DNA of 64,000 bases from Ignavibacteriota bacterium (lineage in GTDB: Bacteria; Bacteroidota; Ignavibacteria; UBA10030), in contig OY969585.1 of NCBI GenBank assembly GCA_963701295.1, positions 1,280,001 through 1,344,000 of the forward strand. Direction: 5' to 3'. The notes below the pieces were generated by a model. It did no database searches. It saw nothing but the letters and a program-made list of their open reading frames with translations, and was not told the DNA's origin. The stretch's first letter is position 1. Each line of letters starts with the position of its first letter. A program made the translations under genes and the position numbers. Shown in pieces: positions 1-9,211 of the stretch.

Positions 1-392
1 CAAGATCAATAGCCAGATATCCAATCCATTGAGATTCTTACGCAATGTATCAAAGGTGAGCTTATAATTTGCAGTGACGAGAACATCTGAAAAATCATTT
101 GGTGTGCCAACGGCATATAATCCGGGGGCGACTCGGTAACGATCTCGGCGAATTCCCCAGCGGACTCTGAAAGCACCAAGGTAATCTCTTATGTCCAATT
201 GTGATGAAATGCGTGGAATCATTCCTGCCGGTGTTTGAATTTCATCCAAGATATAACGCCCTTTTTTTTTAAATTGAAGATGGTTTTACTCTCTGCGATT
301 TGGCAGCCACAATTATCAGCCGGAATTTTCAACTGGAGAGATACCAATTCCTCGGAATTCTCGCAACCGCATGGCTGATTTGAATATCCCAT
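1..392 (-). CDS. hgcA: HgcA-like mercury-methylation corrinoid protein, 5' part (runs off the window edge; -1 frame break at A9 run 262-270)
   Basis: Manual translation of the minus strand, 261 to 1: GRYILDEIQTPAGMIPRISSQLDIRDYLGAFRVRWGIRRDRYRVAPGLYAVGTPNDFSDVLVTANYKLTFDTLRKNLNGLDIWLLIL. This matches the HgcA segment preceding the cap-helix motif N(V/I)WCA(A/G)GK, which would lie just outside the window. ATG at 392 is 3 nt after the arsC stop but in another frame. Confidence 0.82.
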
Positions 393-395
393 ATT

Positions 396-830
396 CTATC
401 TTCGACTATCTTTCAACTTCGATTGATAAAGCTCAAAAAACTTCTCTTTGATTTCATCCCGTACACGCCGAAAAACTGCAAGCACTTCTTCTTCTGTTCC
501 TGTTGCCTCTGACGGATCATCGAATCTGAAATGGAGACTGTGTTTCACTATTCCGTTAAATACCGGACATGTTTCTTTGGCATGATCGCAGACTGTAATG
601 ACATAATCGAATGACTCGCTAAGAAATTCATCAACCGACTTTGGATACCCGATACTAATGTTGATTCCCACCTCTTCCATGACCTGAATTGCACGGGAAG
701 AGACGCGCGATGCCGGATGTGTTCCAGCAGAATAGACTTCCAGGTCCGGATCGAACGATTTCAAAAATCCTTCCGCTATCTGGCTTCTGCAGGAATTACC
801 GGTGCAGAGGATAAGAATACGCTGCGTCAT
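396..830 (-). CDS. arsC: Thioredoxin-coupled arsenate reductase (LMW-PTP fold)
   Basis: P-loop CTGNSCRS, resolving cysteines in VCDHA and ETCP, DDP motif; ars operon context. Confidence 0.93.
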   Translation of the reverse strand: MTQRILILCTGNSCRSQIAEGFLKSFDPDLEVYSAGTHPASRVSSRAIQVMEEVGINISIGYPKSVDEFLSESFDYVITVCDHAKETCPVFNGIVKHSLHFRFDDPSEATGTEEEVLAVFRRVRDEIKEKFFELYQSKLKDSRR

Positions 831-850
831 AATGATTTCTTTGTTATGAA

Positions 851-1729
851 TTATTCATTAATCCATGAAACTGTATATTCAGTGTTTTCTGGAATTTCTA
901 CCCGGGGGTCTTTGATTACCCATTGTCCATTCAAAGCCAACGCACGTGCAGTGAATTCAAAATGGCACATCGCAATACCCATATCAACGCGTTGTAAATC
1001 GGCAAGTCTGAGAATGTTAAATATCATTGTTCCTTTGCCGTATCCTTTCGTCCGCTGAAGATAAAAATGCCATGCATCACCGATTCGAACAATACGCCAT
1101 GGTTGTTTATTCGAAGCCGATGGAGCCCAGCGAACCATTTCCAATGGCTTAGCATATTCACCAGTAGTATCTACAGATAATGAGTTACCGAATATCTCTG
1201 AAAAGAACAATTGATCTGATGGCAAACGGCGAGCAGCACTCAGGTATTTCCTGATCTGTCCGTTTCTACCTCTTTGCTCCTCATCATATCCGATAGAAAC
1301 AACAGCAGGAATTGATTCTTTCTCACATAACGATATTTTCTTTGCAAAACTGCTCTGGGTAAATGAACCACCAAGCCAGCATGTTCCTACACCAATATTG
1401 GTTGCTGAAAGAATTGCCTGTTCCAGGAGATACCCATAGTCTTCAAGGTTTTTTGATCCTTGCTCAACTGCACCAATAATAAATCCTGTCGGGTTCTTGA
1501 TGAAACCGTATGTGCCGAGTCCTTTCAACGCTTTTCTATCGTCCTGGATAGCAGCAACCAGTTCAAATCGAGCTTTCGTTCCCAGAGGACCAACTTTCAA
1601 TGTTTCTAAAAACCCTCTCAGTTCCTGTTGTTGCGTTTCCTGTACCGGTTCATCAATATAAGAACGGCAGGAATATCGCTGTCTTATGATTTCTTGAATG
1701 GGTTGATTCATTCTTCTTTCCTGAAGCAT
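851..1729 (-). CDS. Two-domain nitroreductase-family flavoprotein
   Basis: RYSCRSY, GVGTCWLGG and APSASNKQPW motifs; start may be ATG 1711 (MNQPIQ). Confidence 0.85.
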   Translation of the reverse strand: MLQERRMNQPIQEIIRQRYSCRSYIDEPVQETQQQELRGFLETLKVGPLGTKARFELVAAIQDDRKALKGLGTYGFIKNPTGFIIGAVEQGSKNLEDYGYLLEQAILSATNIGVGTCWLGGSFTQSSFAKKISLCEKESIPAVVSIGYDEEQRGRNGQIRKYLSAARRLPSDQLFFSEIFGNSLSVDTTGEYAKPLEMVRWAPSASNKQPWRIVRIGDAWHFYLQRTKGYGKGTMIFNILRLADLQRVDMGIAMCHFEFTARALALNGQWVIKDPRVEIPENTEYTVSWINE

Positions 1730-1739
1730 ACCAGCTGAA

Positions 1740-2177
1740 TTATAAATCTAGTTTCATGCATATAGCCGAACTGCAGCAGCAGCTCCCAAATTGTGATGAT
1801 TTCTTCATAGTGTCATTTTTGATAGAAGAACGATCTACAGCAATAAATCCTTTCTTGGCAAAGAACTTCGATGCGGTTTCTGTTAAAAGCACTATCCTCT
1901 TAATATTCCTCTGTTTTGCCAGTGATATCATCCAGTCTACCAATTGTGTACCGATTTGTTTCTTCTGTAAAGAGGTTGGAACAGCCACGGAACGGAGCAG
2001 CGCATCTTCGTCGTAATATTCAAATCCGGCAACTCCAACGATAGCATTATTCTCAACAGCGAGATAGAATTCAGTCATTGTTGTGCCGACTGTTTCTGTT
2101 GGGAGTTTCTGGCTTTCCAGCAGCGAGCGAATGTCTACGGTGTCTTTTTCTGCCGCTTGACGATACGAAATGTTCAT
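1740..2177 (-). CDS. arsN2: Arsenic-resistance GNAT N-acetyltransferase, ArsN2-like
   Basis: ALLRSVAV, IVLLTETA..FF.K.GF and C-terminal SQFGSCCCSSA; overlaps the arsM stop. Confidence 0.8.
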   Translation of the reverse strand: MNISYRQAAEKDTVDIRSLLESQKLPTETVGTTMTEFYLAVENNAIVGVAGFEYYDEDALLRSVAVPTSLQKKQIGTQLVDWMISLAKQRNIKRIVLLTETASKFFAKKGFIAVDRSSIKNDTMKKSSQFGSCCCSSAICMKLDL

Positions 2178-2983
2178 GACTTCTCCGCATAGACTGTTAT
2201 ACTAAATATACCGATGTGACTTCTCTTGTAATCCTGCAATTGATCTACAGTAAGAAATCTAGAAAGAATATCGTTTGGGATATCGATCTTCCTATCCCTT
2301 TGAATGGTGATATTTATGAAACCGGCTTCTTTAATGATCCGCAGATATTCTTCTTTCTGAACAGCACCGGAAATACATCCAGCGTACAATGTCGCTTCAT
2401 TTCGAAGTTCATCTGAAAGTTCGCCTTGCAGAACGATATCCGAAATACTGAAATGTCCACCTGACTTGATAATTCGGAATGCCTCTGCAAATGCTTTTTT
2501 CTTATTAGGCACTAGATTCATAACACAATTGCTCACGACAACATCAGCGGTACCTGTTTCAATGGGCATATTGTCTATATCACCCAAACGGAATTCCACA
2601 TTCTTGAATCCGAGTTTTTCTGCATTCGTTCGTGCCTTTACAATCATCGCTTCTGTCATATCAATTCCGATAACACGTCCGGTTTCGCTGACGATGGAAC
2701 GCGCAATAAAGCAATCATTCCCTGCGCCCGAACCAAGATCGATAACTGTGTCGCCTGATTTGATTTGAGCAAACTCTGTCGGCAAGCCGCATCCTAATGC
2801 AAGATCAGCATCGGGGACATAGCCGGGAAGTTTTGTATAATCTTCAGCCATGATCGAAAAATCCACATTCGAACATCCGCAGCCGCTGCCGCAGCAAGAG
2901 GATTGGTTCTGCTCTTTGGTTTGCTGTGCAATGGCTCCGTATTTCTCTTTCACCATTTCTTTGATCTCTCGTTCGGTATTCAT
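2174..2983 (-). CDS. arsM: Arsenite S-adenosylmethionine methyltransferase
   Basis: LGCGLP, DLGSGAGND SAM motif, SNCV and GCISGA cysteines, N-terminal CCGSGCGC. Confidence 0.95.
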   Translation of the reverse strand: MNTEREIKEMVKEKYGAIAQQTKEQNQSSCCGSGCGCSNVDFSIMAEDYTKLPGYVPDADLALGCGLPTEFAQIKSGDTVIDLGSGAGNDCFIARSIVSETGRVIGIDMTEAMIVKARTNAEKLGFKNVEFRLGDIDNMPIETGTADVVVSNCVMNLVPNKKKAFAEAFRIIKSGGHFSISDIVLQGELSDELRNEATLYAGCISGAVQKEEYLRIIKEAGFINITIQRDRKIDIPNDILSRFLTVDQLQDYKRSHIGIFSITVYAEKS

Positions 2984-3005
2984 ATGTCATTCTCCTATAA
3001 ATAAC

Positions 3006-3023
3006 TATCGCAATATTACGATA
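3006..3023. promoter_or_regulatory. Putative ArsR operator, copy upstream of arsM
   Basis: Near-perfect 18-bp palindrome TATCGCAATATTACGATA; 16/18 identical to the copy at 3371-3388. Confidence 0.7.
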
Positions 3024-3041
3024 GATGAGTATAAAAAATTT

Positions 3042-3362
3042 TCAACAACACGATTTCACGTTATTCAGAAACTGAGCAAGAATCTGTTTTGCTTCCTGCC
3101 ATGCTTTTTTATTAATGCAGTAACACACCTTCGGTCCTTCAATCTCGCCTTTGATTAGACCGATACGTTTCAATTCAGCAAGATGTTGTGATACAGTCGC
3201 CTGAGACAGGGGGAGTTCTTCCACAATGTCGCCGCAAACACAAGCATTTTGTTTAGCTAGGAATTCTAGAATTGCAATTCGTGCCGGATGTGCAAAAGCT
3301 TTCCCGAGATCCGCGAGGCGATTCTGACTGTTGCTAAAAACTTCTTTCTTTGATGTTCCCAT
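3042..3362 (-). CDS. arsR: ArsR/SmtB metalloregulator
   Basis: KAFAHPARIAIL, CVCGD metal box, LSQATVSQHL helix-turn-helix, C-terminal CC; true start taken as ATG 3362 (MGTSKK). Confidence 0.93.
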   Translation of the reverse strand: MGTSKKEVFSNSQNRLADLGKAFAHPARIAILEFLAKQNACVCGDIVEELPLSQATVSQHLAELKRIGLIKGEIEGPKVCYCINKKAWQEAKQILAQFLNNVKSCC

Positions 3363-3370
3363 AATTCTTA

Positions 3371-3388
3371 TATCGTAATAATACGATA
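3371..3388. promoter_or_regulatory. Putative ArsR operator, copy upstream of arsR
   Basis: TATCGTA-ATAA-TACGATA 7-4-7 palindrome 8 nt upstream of the arsR ATG. Confidence 0.7.
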
Positions 3389-3455
3389 GAAGTTTCACAA
3401 AAACAAGAAAAAAATGAGATGATGCCTTTATACGCGGGAAAATGGGTCGTTCTGT

Positions 3456-3502
3456 AAAAAAACTTCTGGCTTTCCGAAGAAAAAACCTAAAACTGGAAAG
3501 CC
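3456..3502 (-). terminator. Possible intrinsic terminator after ftsZ
   Basis: 8-bp stem GGCTTTCC/GGAAAGCC with a long 19-nt loop; T7 run 5 nt downstream on the minus strand; atypical geometry. Confidence 0.35.
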
Positions 3503-3589
3503 GCAAATGCGTGAGTCATCCCTCATTCCCACCGTGCAAGGAGAGAAGAGAAAGTACATCACTTCTATCAATATGAAATAGCCGCCCGA

Positions 3590-4765
3590 TTAGTCCATGA
3601 TCTTACGAAGGAACGCTGGACGTTCGGTATCGGACTTGTCAATCCTTTCTCTTTGCATACCGACTTCTCGAAGCGGAGCATTTGGAATTTCTACACCGCG
3701 ACGTACGAATGTCGGCACCTCAAAACGCTGCAACTCTGTTGGACCGACTGGCACATGGTCGATCAGTTTCGCTGTTGGTTTTGCAGGCCGTTGAACTGCC
3801 GCTGCTCGTTTGTTGAAACCGGTTGCGATGACGGTTACCATAATCTCTTCTGTCATGTTTTCATCAATGACAGTGCCGAGAATAACGTTTGCTTCCTCGC
3901 CTGCTGCTTCGTGAATGATTTTTGTTGCTTCATCCACTTCCATAAGGCTGAGTTCTTTACCGCCCGTGATATTGATGAGAATGCCCTGTGCTCCGGCGAT
4001 GGATACACCTTCAAGTAACGGGCTGGAAATTGCCATTTGTGCTGCTTCGGTTGCACGGTTTTCGCCTGAAGCAATACCGGTGCCCATGAGCGCGTCGCCC
4101 ATTTCTTTCATGATAGTACGCACATCGGCAAAGTCTACGTTGATGTAGCCTGGGACAGTGATGACTTCCGAGATGCCGCGCGTGGCATTATATAAAACCT
4201 GATTGGCTATTTCAAATGCTTCAAGAATAGGAGTGCGTCGATCAATAAGATCAAGAAGCCTTTGGTTGGGAATGACGATGAGCGTATCGACATTCTTCTT
4301 CATCTCTTCAATTCCTTGCTCGGCTTGTCCATTTCTTCGTTTGCCTTCGCTGTTAAAGGGCTTCGTCACGATACCTACTACAAGTGCACCGACACTTTTT
4401 GCGATGCTGGCTACTAATGGTGCACCGCCGGTACCGGTACCACCGCCCATTCCTGCAGTGATGAATACCATATCACAACCGGACAGGGCCTGCGCGATTT
4501 CTTCCCGATCCTCTTCTACAGCACGGAAACCAATACTGGGGTCAGCGCCGGCGCCGAGTCCGCGCGTGAGGTTTTTGCCAATTTGAAGTTTATGCGGAGC
4601 TTTATTGCGTTCCAGTGCTTGCAGATCTGTGTTGATGATAACGAAATCAACACCAGCAAGACCTTTATCGATCATACTATTGACGGCATTGCCTCCGCCT
4701 CCGCCAACACCAACAACACGAATTTTTGCTCCTCGACCAGTTACGGTGTCAAGTTCGATAGGCAC
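3590..4765 (-). CDS. ftsZ: Cell division protein FtsZ
   Basis: [15 protein letters not shown] and INVDFADV motifs, C-terminal PAFLRK. Confidence 0.99.
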
Positions 4766-4821
4766 GGTGGGTTCTCCTTTTATTTGTTGTGAAATTATTG
4801 TTAATAAAGTTCTTACTCGTA

Positions 4822-6060
4822 TTACAGTTCGTCAAACCACGATTTCATTTTCTGGAAGATCGTTCTACCTTTTCCGTCTTGAATGACTGCTTTTACACCG
4901 GAACGATCACGATGCTTTAATTCATGCATCACTAATCCGACGCCTGTGGCGTAAATTGGATTCTCGATTTCTCGAACGAGGCCAGAGCTGAATCCGCCTG
5001 GAATTCCAATCTTTACTGGCATTCCGAGTACCTCCTTTGCAAGATCAGCAGTTCCTTTAATAAGTGAGCCGCCACCGGTGAGCACAACACCTGCTGAAAG
5101 ATGCTTAGAATACCCGGAACGTTTGATCTCCATCGCAGCAAATTCTAAAATTTCTTCCATCCGTGGCTGAATAACTTTGCAGAGTAAATGTTTGTCGATT
5201 TCGAGCGGTGCGCGTCCGCCAATACCGGGAATTTGAATCGGCTGGTTATCCACGATTGCAGGCTCGTACGTGAAGCCATAATCCACTTTGATTTTCTCGG
5301 CTTGATCTGTGAGGATGCCAAATCCTTTACGAATATCGTCCGTTACTTTTCTGCCGGCAATACCAATGACAGCTGTATGACGAATAGTTCGTTCCTCGAA
5401 CACGGCGAGATCCGTTGTGCCACCGCCGATATCGAGAAGCGCCACGCCCACTTCTTTTTCTTCATCATCCAAAACTGCATAACTCGATGCAAGTGGTTCG
5501 AGCACCATATCGTTGACATGCAAACCGGCGCGTTGGACGCATTTGTAAATGTTTTGCGCTGCCGTAACTAGTCCGGTGATGATATGAACAATCGCTTCCA
5601 TGCGGACACCGGACATTCCGACAGGATCGTAAATGCTATCCTGTCCATCGACAATGAATTGCTGGGGAATGACATGAATAATTCTTCGGTCAAGCGGAAG
5701 TGCGACACGTTTTGTATCCTCAATAAGCCGATCAACATCTTCCTGCGTAATTTCATTTTCCGGCCTGCTGATACTGATGACTCCGCGGCTTTGAAAACTC
5801 TGAATGTGGTCGCCAGCGATACCGACTGTCACAGAACTAATTTTTACACCGGATTGCTGTTCAGCATCCTGGACAGCCGATTGAATGGAACGAACAGTTT
5901 TTTCAATGTTTGTCACCACACCACGGGTCAATCCTTCAGATGTGCTCTTGCCAATGCCAAGTATTTTCAGTTTCCCGGGATAATTGTCATCTGGTGATGC
6001 AACAATTGCACATACTTTTGTGGTACCAATATCTAATCCAACTGCTATATCCTGCTCCAT
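4822..6060 (-). CDS. ftsA: Cell division protein FtsA
   Basis: [17 protein letters not shown] and LTGGGS actin-like motifs; position in dcw. Confidence 0.98.
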
Positions 6061-6105
6061 ATCACATCCTTCTCGTCATAAATATTTTCATTAAATAATC
6101 TTTCG

Positions 6106-6867
6106 TTATAGACTCTTTGTTGCTAATGGTTCTTGACTCCAGCGTGCAACGATCTGATCTTGATACCTTAAATCCACATATTGCAAGTATTGCACTCCAC
6201 GCGTTCGTACAATATCATTCCAAAATATTTCCAATCGAATAAGTTTTCCAGGAAGTTCACCGCGTCCAAAAATAATAGGCACACCGCCTTCCGCCGAGTA
6301 GAGCACAATATCTCCACCATTTCGCACTTGTATTTCTGAAATATTATGATACAATGGACGATTCACGGTTCTTAACACTGCAAGCAATTGCAGAGCTTCG
6401 ATTTCGTCTGGCTGAGTAATGGTTGAACCTAAAACAAAGGGCTCACTTGCCGAAATTCCGCTGATCATGGGCAGATCAAAAATCTTGTACGAAACAGTTT
6501 TGGGAAGTACGACTCCATCTTCATCTAAATACACTGGTTCGGAGAGATTCACCATGGCGACAGGAACGCGCTCAATAATTTGAATATGTATTGAATTGGG
6601 TAAGTTTCGCTCAACCACAGCATCTTTGATATAATAATGGCTCATGACATTTTGTTGAATTGCGGTTAAGTCAACTTTATACAGAAGTGCACCTATTTGT
6701 ACTTGAGTAAGTTGAATAATTTCATTCGTGTTGACGATCCGGTTGCCGTCTATTTTAATTTGATTGATTTTCAAACTTGATTTCCATGCATTAGCACCGA
6801 ATGCAAGACAAACCACCAAAGCTATCAGCATCAGCACATGAAAAGTCTTCGGTTTTGATTCGTTCAT
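6106..6867 (-). CDS. ftsQ: Cell division protein FtsQ/DivIB
   Basis: N-terminal TM, POTRA-like region, IIERVP, YVDLRY; upstream of ftsA. Confidence 0.92.
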   Translation of the reverse strand: MNESKPKTFHVLMLIALVVCLAFGANAWKSSLKINQIKIDGNRIVNTNEIIQLTQVQIGALLYKVDLTAIQQNVMSHYYIKDAVVERNLPNSIHIQIIERVPVAMVNLSEPVYLDEDGVVLPKTVSYKIFDLPMISGISASEPFVLGSTITQPDEIEALQLLAVLRTVNRPLYHNISEIQVRNGGDIVLYSAEGGVPIIFGRGELPGKLIRLEIFWNDIVRTRGVQYLQYVDLRYQDQIVARWSQEPLATKSL

Positions 6868-7790
6868 GCTGCTTCCTTCGCAGAACTGGAGAATCCGACC
6901 ATCCTAACTTCCAACTCCAACATCACTCCTGAATTTTGATATACCGTACGCTTCACCAAATCGATGAGTTTTACTATGTCCTCTGCTTTCGCATTGCCAA
7001 GATTGATAATGAAATTTGCATGCTTCTCTGATATCTGTGCGTCGCCCACTCGTTTGCCTTTTAATCCGGCTTGTTCAATCAATTTTGCCGCAAATGTATT
7101 TGGTGGATTCTTGAACATACTACCAAGGTTTGGAAATTCCAGCGGCTGAGTCTCATTGCGGCGAAGGATCAATTCCCGACGCTTTGCACTGAGCGGTTCT
7201 TTGTCCCCTCGTTGAAGCTTAAATGCTGCACTCAGCACAACATCTTGATCAAATCCCGAATGCCGATATGAGAACTGCGCATTTTCATTCTTCACTTGCT
7301 GTGTATGTCCATTGCGGATGACTTCAACTTCAATAAGATGATCGGCAATTTCGCCGTCGTGAGCACCGGCATTCATTGCTACTGCGCCGCCGATAGTACC
7401 GGGAATTCCAGCAAGCATTTCCACACCAGCAAGTTCATTCTGAATACAGAAGTCAACAAATTTTGTCAACCATACCCCAGCTTCAGCAATGACAAAATTG
7501 CCATCGATATAAATTTTTGAAAGTGCCTGTTCAACATTTATAACAGCACCTCGAATTCCTTCGTCACTGACAAGGAGGTTGCTTCCCCGACCGAGAACCA
7601 TCCACGAATAATGATGGGTGTGAAAATAGGCGATGATTGCCTTGAGATCATCTTTATCCATCGGTTCGATGTAGAAATCTGCCGGCCCACCGACCTTCAT
7701 CCATGTATATTTTCTCATTGGTTCATCAACAGCAATGTTGCCGCGGAGTATCTTCTGTATGTCATTTAAAGAGATCATTGTTTCATGCAA
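6864..7790 (-). CDS. murB: UDP-N-acetylenolpyruvoylglucosamine reductase
   Basis: GGPAD, GRGSNLLVSD, GIPGTIGGA..MNAGA, GSMFKNP, KHANF. Confidence 0.97.
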   Translation of the reverse strand: MHETMISLNDIQKILRGNIAVDEPMRKYTWMKVGGPADFYIEPMDKDDLKAIIAYFHTHHYSWMVLGRGSNLLVSDEGIRGAVINVEQALSKIYIDGNFVIAEAGVWLTKFVDFCIQNELAGVEMLAGIPGTIGGAVAMNAGAHDGEIADHLIEVEVIRNGHTQQVKNENAQFSYRHSGFDQDVVLSAAFKLQRGDKEPLSAKRRELILRRNETQPLEFPNLGSMFKNPPNTFAAKLIEQAGLKGKRVGDAQISEKHANFIINLGNAKAEDIVKLIDLVKRTVYQNSGVMLELEVRMVGFSSSAKEAA

Positions 7791-7825
7791 GGGAATATTT
7801 TTAACCTGCTCGGATTTATTCCTTT

Positions 7826-9211
7826 TTACTGTTTGTTCTTTATTTGATTTAAAAACTCTTCACCGTATTTCCAGATATCACCTGCACCCATGGTTATTAC
7901 GATATCACCCGGTTTTACGATAGACTTCAGAAAAGTAGCAACCTCTTTTTTATCCGGAACATAGTGAACATCCTTGTGACCAAATTGTTTTGCTGCATTT
8001 ACAATTAACTCGCCGTTCACTCCCTGTATCGGTTCCTCGCGCGCAGGGTATACATCCGTAACAACCAGCACATCTGATAACAGGAACGACTTGCCGAAGT
8101 CTTCATAGAAATCGCGCGTACGGCTGTACAGATGCGGTTGGAAAACACATACCACCCGTCGCCGCCAACCTGACTTCACGCCGGAAAGCGTAGCCCTGCA
8201 TTCCGTTGGATGATGTGCGTAATCGTCGTACAAAGCAATATCGTTCACTTCGCCTTTCTTTTCCCAACGCCGATAGACGCCAGCAAATTTCTCGATGCCA
8301 GCTTTGATCTTTTTAAATGGTATGCCAAGTTCCAATGCGACAGTGATTGCACCCAGCGAATTCTGTACGTTATGGATGCCCGGCACCTGAAGCATGATTG
8401 TGCCTAGTTCATGATTATTACGAACAAGCGTGTACGTGGTTGAGTTATCCTTGTGTCGGATGTCCACCGCTTGAACGTCCCCTTGCGGGTTAAGACCATA
8501 GGTGACAATTTTCTTTTTGCTCAAGTGTGGCATAATATCCAACAATGCTGGTTCATCGAGGCAGAGAACAATGAATCCGTAGAATGGTACTTTTGATGCA
8601 AACTGGATAAATGCACTTTTGATATCTTCCAAATCACGATAACAATCAAGATGGTCGGTTTCGAGTGTGGTCAACACGGCAATGGTCGGTGTGATGGACA
8701 GGAATGACCGATCGTATTCATCCGCCTCTACAACAATGAATTCACCTTGCCCAAGACGCGCATTCGTACCGCCTAATCCGCTTAATTTACCGCCGACAAT
8801 AACTGTTGGATCAAGTCCGCCTTCCATCAGTACAAGACTTGTCATCGAAGTCGTCGTTGTCTTTCCGTGAGTGCCAGCGATGCCGATGCCATATTTTAGC
8901 CGCATAACTTCAGCAAGCATTTCGGCCCGACGCACGATGGGAATGGTTCGCTTCTGGGCGTCGAGAATTTCTGGGTTATCCGGTTGTACCGCAGAAGAGT
9001 ACACAACGGTGTCTACATCTTGCGCTATATTTTCTGCACGATGCCCTTCGAATATACTGGCGCCAAGTTTTTGGAGACGTTCCGTCACTTCAGAAAGCGC
9101 GCGATCGGAGCCGCTAACCTTAAATCCCTGATCGAGCAGAATTTCAGCTATGCCACTCATCCCTATACCGCCGATACCAATGAAATGTAATTTCTTGATA
9201 GAACGAAACAT
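7826..9211 (-). CDS. murC: UDP-N-acetylmuramate-L-alanine ligase
   Basis: HFIGIGGIGMSG, GTHGKTTTT, EADEYD, DDYAHHPTE. Confidence 0.98.
   Translation of the reverse strand: MFRSIKKLHFIGIGGIGMSGIAEILLDQGFKVSGSDRALSEVTERLQKLGASIFEGHRAENIAQDVDTVVYSSAVQPDNPEILDAQKRTIPIVRRAEMLAEVMRLKYGIGIAGTHGKTTTTSMTSLVLMEGGLDPTVIVGGKLSGLGGTNARLGQGEFIVVEADEYDRSFLSITPTIAVLTTLETDHLDCYRDLEDIKSAFIQFASKVPFYGFIVLCLDEPALLDIMPHLSKKKIVTYGLNPQGDVQAVDIRHKDNSTTYTLVRNNHELGTIMLQVPGIHNVQNSLGAITVALELGIPFKKIKAGIEKFAGVYRRWEKKGEVNDIALYDDYAHHPTECRATLSGVKSGWRRRVVCVFQPHLYSRTRDFYEDFGKSFLLSDVLVVTDVYPAREEPIQGVNGELIVNAAKQFGHKDVHYVPDKKEVATFLKSIVKPGDIVITMGAGDIWKYGEEFLNQIKNKQ

Follow-up and report, generated by a model that had tools for sequence, protein, structure and literature searches.

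Separation of the Cys-rich HgcA arm from its core at an A9-G3 run in an Ignavibacteriota genome: arm loss or assembly error is likelier than a programmed switch

In the assembled sequence of the Ignavibacteriota genome studied here (G000, the source genome), a frame break detaches the Cys-rich N-terminal arm of HgcA from the HgcA core, and our results favor, at slightly better than even odds (about 0.52), a real and lineage-specific loss of a dispensable arm, with HgcA restarting at TTG 249. Since the arm is in frame and lacks a slippery signal in the related loci, a loss in one lineage or a sequencing error is likelier than the programmed switch of the original prediction, whose headline of recoding or phase variation fails on conservation, on the downstream stem, on Shine-Dalgarno (SD) pairing and on the lysine tRNAs. 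The caveat attached to that prediction, that a sequencing error was at least as likely, stands in that error is a strong rival, but we rank it below arm loss, at somewhat less than even odds. All these weightings, that of recoding included, are judgements made from counts and not computed posteriors. What remains is a likely case of an HgcA shedding its Cys arm.

The window, i.e., the whole 64,000-nt stretch that was analysed (G000:C1:1280001-1344000), lies on a single 3.64-Mb contig, and positions below follow its numbering.

The hgcA locus and its frame break

The layout originally described was confirmed by the sequence (Table 1). An ATG at 392 on the minus strand, 3 nt past the arsC stop, opens a 57-aa ORF with two CGC motifs, which crosses an A9 run (270-262) followed by G3 and ends at a TGA; the HgcA core lies in the -1 frame, which is closed upstream by a stop and open from 285, and TTG 249, ATG 222 and an ATGA overlap are present where they had been placed. 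The arm encoded by the 57-codon ORF is identical to the in-frame arm of the congener G010 at 29 of 41 residues, with both CxC motifs intact and no second lesion.

Table 1. Features of the hgcA locus and of the adjacent ars genes, in window positions.
Feature	Position	Strand	Remarks
hgcA core, 5' part from TTG 249	1..249	minus	337 aa in total, extending beyond the window to G000:C1:1279239
Proposed stem GATGAAAT/ATTTCATC	203..246	minus	Present; chance-level folding, no conservation
57-codon ORF	219..392	minus	Codons 1-43 encode the Cys-rich (CxC...CxC) N-terminal HgcA arm of the clade; remainder is out-of-frame read-through to TGA 221-219
A9-G3 purine run (frame break)	259..270	minus	Exceeds the orthologous stretch by 2 nt; 3' part gives an SD-like AAAGGG 9 nt before TTG 249
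TAA stop upstream in the core (-1) frame	287..289	minus	Off-frame copy in intact relatives too
Ribosome-binding site of the ancestral start, weakened	393..406	minus	GAAG vs GAGG in close relatives; overlaps the arsC stop
arsC-type arsenate reductase	396..830	minus	127.8 bits vs TIGR02691, below the cut-off of 174.3; directly upstream of hgcA
Presumed nitroreductase-like ORF	851-1729	minus	No NCBIfam match at 1e-12
arsN2	1740-2177	minus	Upstream ars cluster
arsM	2174-2983	minus	Upstream ars cluster
ArsR/SmtB regulator	3042-3506	minus	Upstream ars cluster

The distance from the ATG to the cap helix is 407 nt in G000 vs 405 in the closest relatives. It had been proposed that a tenth A would join the two frames, and one added base does restore the frame; however, the site exceeds its orthologues by 2 nt and is not 1 nt short, so that an A10 allele would carry one extra codon, an arm length found in none of the 70 arm-bearing homologues. 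A typical homopolymer error, the loss of one base, would thus presuppose that a real extra codon had arisen earlier.

The ATGA overlap and the -1 stop also occur, off-frame, in intact relatives (e.g., G010), because the codons for a conserved Gly-Met-Ile and a conserved Ser-Lys give rise to them. Translational coupling at ATG 222 was therefore rejected, the SD pairing there being -1.7; from the original proposal of a restart, TTG 249 is retained in our preferred reading and ATG 222 with its overlap is discarded as a signal. A promoter/terminator scan gave chance-level counts (9 vs 11.6; 4 vs 3.8).

The Cys-rich arm in related loci

A match was found in 15 of the 61 genomes searched, including 11 of 15 congeners. 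The junction was compared across 16 related loci (13 from genomes and 3 from metagenomes), with the partial or distant matches L016, L017 and L018 excluded; L021 is identical to G010 across the aligned stretch, and the counts of 16, 14 and 13 loci thus contain one duplicate. Alignment of the 5' ends spoke against the idea of a conserved frame break, as neither a break nor A-AAA-AAG occurs at any of the 16 loci. The arm is in frame at 14 of them, the other two being G001, with an NN gap inside the arm that hides its frame, and G052, with no arm; the longest A run at the junction among these relatives, a set without a conspecific genome, is A6.

A homologous arm is fused to the core in 70 of 120 protein matches, and the 57-aa ORF therefore corresponds to this clade's HgcA arm in detached form, and not to an independent gene. 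The peptide is absent from the protein collection, in which the 337-aa core and arsC each form a singleton deriving from this contig; no stand-alone homologue appeared among proteins of 31-100 aa in a weak search that required three shared 5-mers, and viral contigs gave no match to the junction pattern.

In a wider set of 80 related loci, about 10 of which are the same genes as those of congeners in the genome search, the first ATG lies less than 100 codons before the cap helix in 54 when only ATG starts are counted. In outgroups HgcA commonly lacks the arm, and, judging from these sequences, the arm appears to be dispensable in relatives. Derived amino-acid changes in the arm number 9 in G000 vs 5 in G010, and synonymous ones 5 vs 2, an excess too small to interpret. 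A codon-position test left the hgcA break unpolarised (10, 4 and 9 substitutions upstream), its polarity coming from the other relatives.

The in-frame arm of G002 (locus L012) has ATA at the start position and a weak SD (-3.0), and lacks the first CxC; it is likely a second case of arm loss in the genus, and its ATA could itself be an error. Furthermore, at two loci with arm-less hgcA (L213 and L201) the upstream gene has a Cys-rich C-terminal tail, namely an arsC ending in GCGCCG and a gene for a DNA-binding-type protein with a tail beginning ECCLC...

Recoding and slippage

In a selected form of the original prediction, a -1 ribosomal shift or slippage at the A9 run would be maintained so as to yield a free Cys-rich peptide together with full-length HgcA, a reading that we consider very improbable. 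The in-frame A-AAA-AAG heptamer (267-261, minus strand), the 9-A run and the retention of both CxC motifs agree with it, and 9-A runs slip efficiently in bacterial transcription, Thermus, with two lysine tRNAs, using slippage in dnaX (PMC5009743). Against it stands the absence of the motif at all 16 related loci; likewise, in the wider set, 4 of 80 loci have the heptamer letters nearby, and none of these showed a split Cys arm. Genome-wide, 261 of 2913 ORFs carry the in-frame heptamer, with 280 sites in total, compared with 396 expected from codon use, and such sites are thus mildly avoided yet common. Moreover, a shift would give a product of a length unseen in the 70 homologues, and the SD at the start of the peptide is weak.

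The accessory signals of a ribosomal shift fare no better. The letters of the stem originally proposed (246-239/210-203) are present, but they fold no better than shuffled sequences (three windows, with z of -0.49, -0.29 and +1.04). The pairing arms are disrupted in G001, G008, L019 and L020 but preserved in G010, a genome lacking the slippery site. Inspection by eye of the 20 nt preceding the heptamer revealed nothing resembling an SD. The Escherichia coli dnaX -1 frameshift uses the same heptamer and depends on weak pairing of the sole tRNA-Lys with AAG (PMC5009743), whereas G000 encodes the cognate tRNA-Lys(CUU) as well as tRNA-Lys(TTT), so the dnaX mechanism would be without its basis, in addition to lacking a significant stem, an upstream SD and conservation.

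Transcriptional slippage at runs of 9 A/T, as described for Thermus dnaX and for Buchnera and Blochmannia (PMC5009743), shares with hgcA the run of 9 A and the joining of frames by one base, but here the run is unconserved; slippage at this site would be at most an accidental by-product. No published frameshift of hgcA in mercury methylation was found in the literature searched, which covered few subscription journals, and a programmed switch on mercury methylation would, if true, be the first within it; the evidence does not support one.

Quality of the assembly

The strong rival to arm loss is an assembly error: hgcA would be a normal, continuous gene of ~384 aa, and a long-read-type consensus would have got the length of the A/G purine run wrong or blended two strains. 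To gauge this, the assembly was calibrated against the congener G010 over 2.78 Mb of ~3.3 Mb, G010 itself not being proven error-free. Among 1572 orthologues, 41 candidate frame breaks were found, of which 36, hgcA not counted, were polarised to G000, whereas 14 candidates in 1535 orthologues gave 8 polarised to G010 (Fisher p 2.4e-5). The broken G000 genes include trmD (C1:3386703), gltX (C1:3434963), a Kdo transferase gene (C1:928709) and miaB (C1:959753). Error motifs account for 25 of the 36 polarised breaks, 19 being +1 beside GTAC and 6 lying at words that resemble CATGAG. Within the first 2.0 Mb alone, GTAC adjoins 11 of 23 breaks vs a background of 3.6% (p 1.2e-10). The proportion of broken genes and their link to motifs indicate an error-rich assembly, making error a serious explanation for hgcA. 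From this pattern we infer a long-read (nanopore-type) origin of the assembly, as methylation-linked indels are described in nanopore-only assemblies, in which homopolymer indels nearly always consist of a missing base (PMC12506013).

Several features of the hgcA site agree with an error: just 28 long runs exist and it falls at one of them; neither arm nor core looks damaged, both CxC motifs being retained; each of the three polarised breaks at runs of at least 6 is -1, which would be the right direction for this site; and two other breaks fall in purine runs resembling that of hgcA. Furthermore, in another assembly (L211) the hgcA core is broken by a +1 insertion of the same GTAC class, ~60 nt before the cap-helix motif, and the GTAC artefact likely recurs across assemblies.

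Other features argue against it. Among runs of at least 9 A/T in 1547 orthologous genes, 27 of 28 are gap-free relative to G010, the sole exception being hgcA, and R10.4 consensus is reported to resolve most runs below 11 nt (PMC9262707). G000 shares a strong excess of motif-linked indels with nanopore-only assemblies (PMC12506013, PMC9262707), but the hgcA break differs in being +2 relative to orthologues and in having neither a GTAC nor a CATGAG context; breaks outside the motifs number 11 in G000, close to the 8 of G010. An error would therefore have to be a rare +2 event, or a -1 error upon a real extra codon: in 1.56 M aligned columns there are 3 differences of +2 (hgcA included) and 22 of +3.

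Two sequencing runs gave weak DNA matches (shares 0.10 and 0.06), with no RNA match listed. At 85% likeness, the junction had zero depth in the first (X1) and no indel listed in the second (X2), whose contigs are mostly less than 90% alike.

In assemblies with such errors ~2% of genes are broken, hgcA among them (L211), and frame breaks there therefore need a check of the reads before a biological reading; given the systematic GTAC and CATGAG errors, other breaks in G000 should first be screened for these motifs. No paper joining hgcA pseudogenes with long-read metagenome-assembled genomes was found in the same literature. A list of premature stops was set aside, as false ORF extensions at the N-terminus made up most of it. 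Separately, the thymidine kinase gene of G000 (C1:2725427) combines a premature stop with a frame break, and is a probable true pseudogene.

Start sites and loss of the arm

The SD pairing at ATG 392 is -1.8 kcal/mol, compared with -5.0 to -7.7 in 13 related loci, a count that omits G001, whose start was wrongly picked, and with G002 as the only other weak case. Comparable weakening was found at 12 of 361 orthologous starts (~3%), and an assembly error at the purine run leaves this uncommon event unexplained. A methylation-type G-to-A error as the source of the weak SD was considered and rejected, there being no excess in that context (25 vs 28 in the reverse direction).

Conversely, the pairing before TTG 249, a codon common to the three genomes, is -5.9 in G000 vs +0.4 in G010 and 0.0 in G001, and the same G3 that breaks the frame supplies it. 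As pairing of -5 or stronger is also found for 16.9% of positions drawn at random within genes, this is weak evidence alone, and most versions of the run that keep the frame would contain AAGG too. The product of TTG 249 places the cap-helix Cys at position 92, and in the annotated HgcA of ND132 it is Cys93 (PMC7305189).

Taken together, these observations are consistent with the favored loss of the arm: we infer that the bases are real, that the 2-nt excess at the A9-G3 run would cut the arm off from the core, that HgcA would start at TTG 249 as an ordinary short enzyme of 337 aa, and that the 57-aa ORF would be a remnant whose weak translation is coupled to arsC. With a real A9 run, slippage of RNA polymerase would probably join arm and core in a minority of transcripts, a side effect and not a selected switch. 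Against arm loss, no simple slippage event adds two G.

A related scenario, which we regard as unlikely, takes the A9 run as real and the start sites as being swapped, the old SD having decayed and a new SD-TTG having arisen, with slippage toggling a minority form that bears the arm. Were both elements true, a single gene in an arsenic-responsive operon would provide a natural two-form HgcA, with and without the metal-binding Cys arm.

The HgcA core, known arms and the hgcAB-ars cluster

The core scores 419.2 bits against NF040863 (cut-off 275), and the product of TTG 249 covers profile positions 1-322 of 325. The cap-helix motif NVWCSAGK lies just beyond the window end and is identical in congeners, and dN/dS of the core is 0.13-0.16, compared with 0.11-0.18 between relatives; the core is intact and under purifying selection. 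Both leading readings, arm loss and assembly error, leave the organism with an ordinary HgcA, from whose sequence mercury methylation is predicted.

A Cys-rich arm of 40-50 residues before the usual annotated start is known from the HgcA CU/CC extensions of Haft and Gwadz (bioRxiv 10.1101/2022.07.06.499078). Unlike their Cys-Sec arm, that of G000 has two CxC and no in-frame UGA, and its interruption is a frame break; the CxC arm of this clade may already be contained in their HgcA alignment (Fig. S7). A selenocysteine arm was rejected for this locus, as no UGA occurs in the arm of G000 or its congeners, no tRNA-Sec was called, and 0 of 1 SelB matches exceeded the cut-off.

Clusters of hgcAB with ars genes have already been described (PMC7438021; bioRxiv 10.1101/2022.10.17.512643). 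The locus shares with those of Bacteroidota/Ignavibacteria the same NF040863 core, hgcB, acr3 and arsR/arsM/arsN2/arsC, and differs in its out-of-frame arm and weak SD. Directly downstream of hgcA is hgcB (NF040864, 103.3 bits vs a cut-off of 99), followed by acr3, both outside the window, and hgcAB thus sits within a full ars cluster in the order arsR, arsM, arsN2, nitroreductase-like ORF, arsC, hgcA, hgcB and acr3 (window 851-3506, L001:7835-9222). From arsM to hgcB, the gaps are of ~20 nt or less, or the genes overlap shortly. The ORF upstream of arsC is taken by us to be nitroreductase-like from its sequence, and window positions 3590-9211 presumably hold, judging by the translations, an ordinary cell-division and cell-wall cluster with ftsZ, ftsA, ftsQ, murB and murC.
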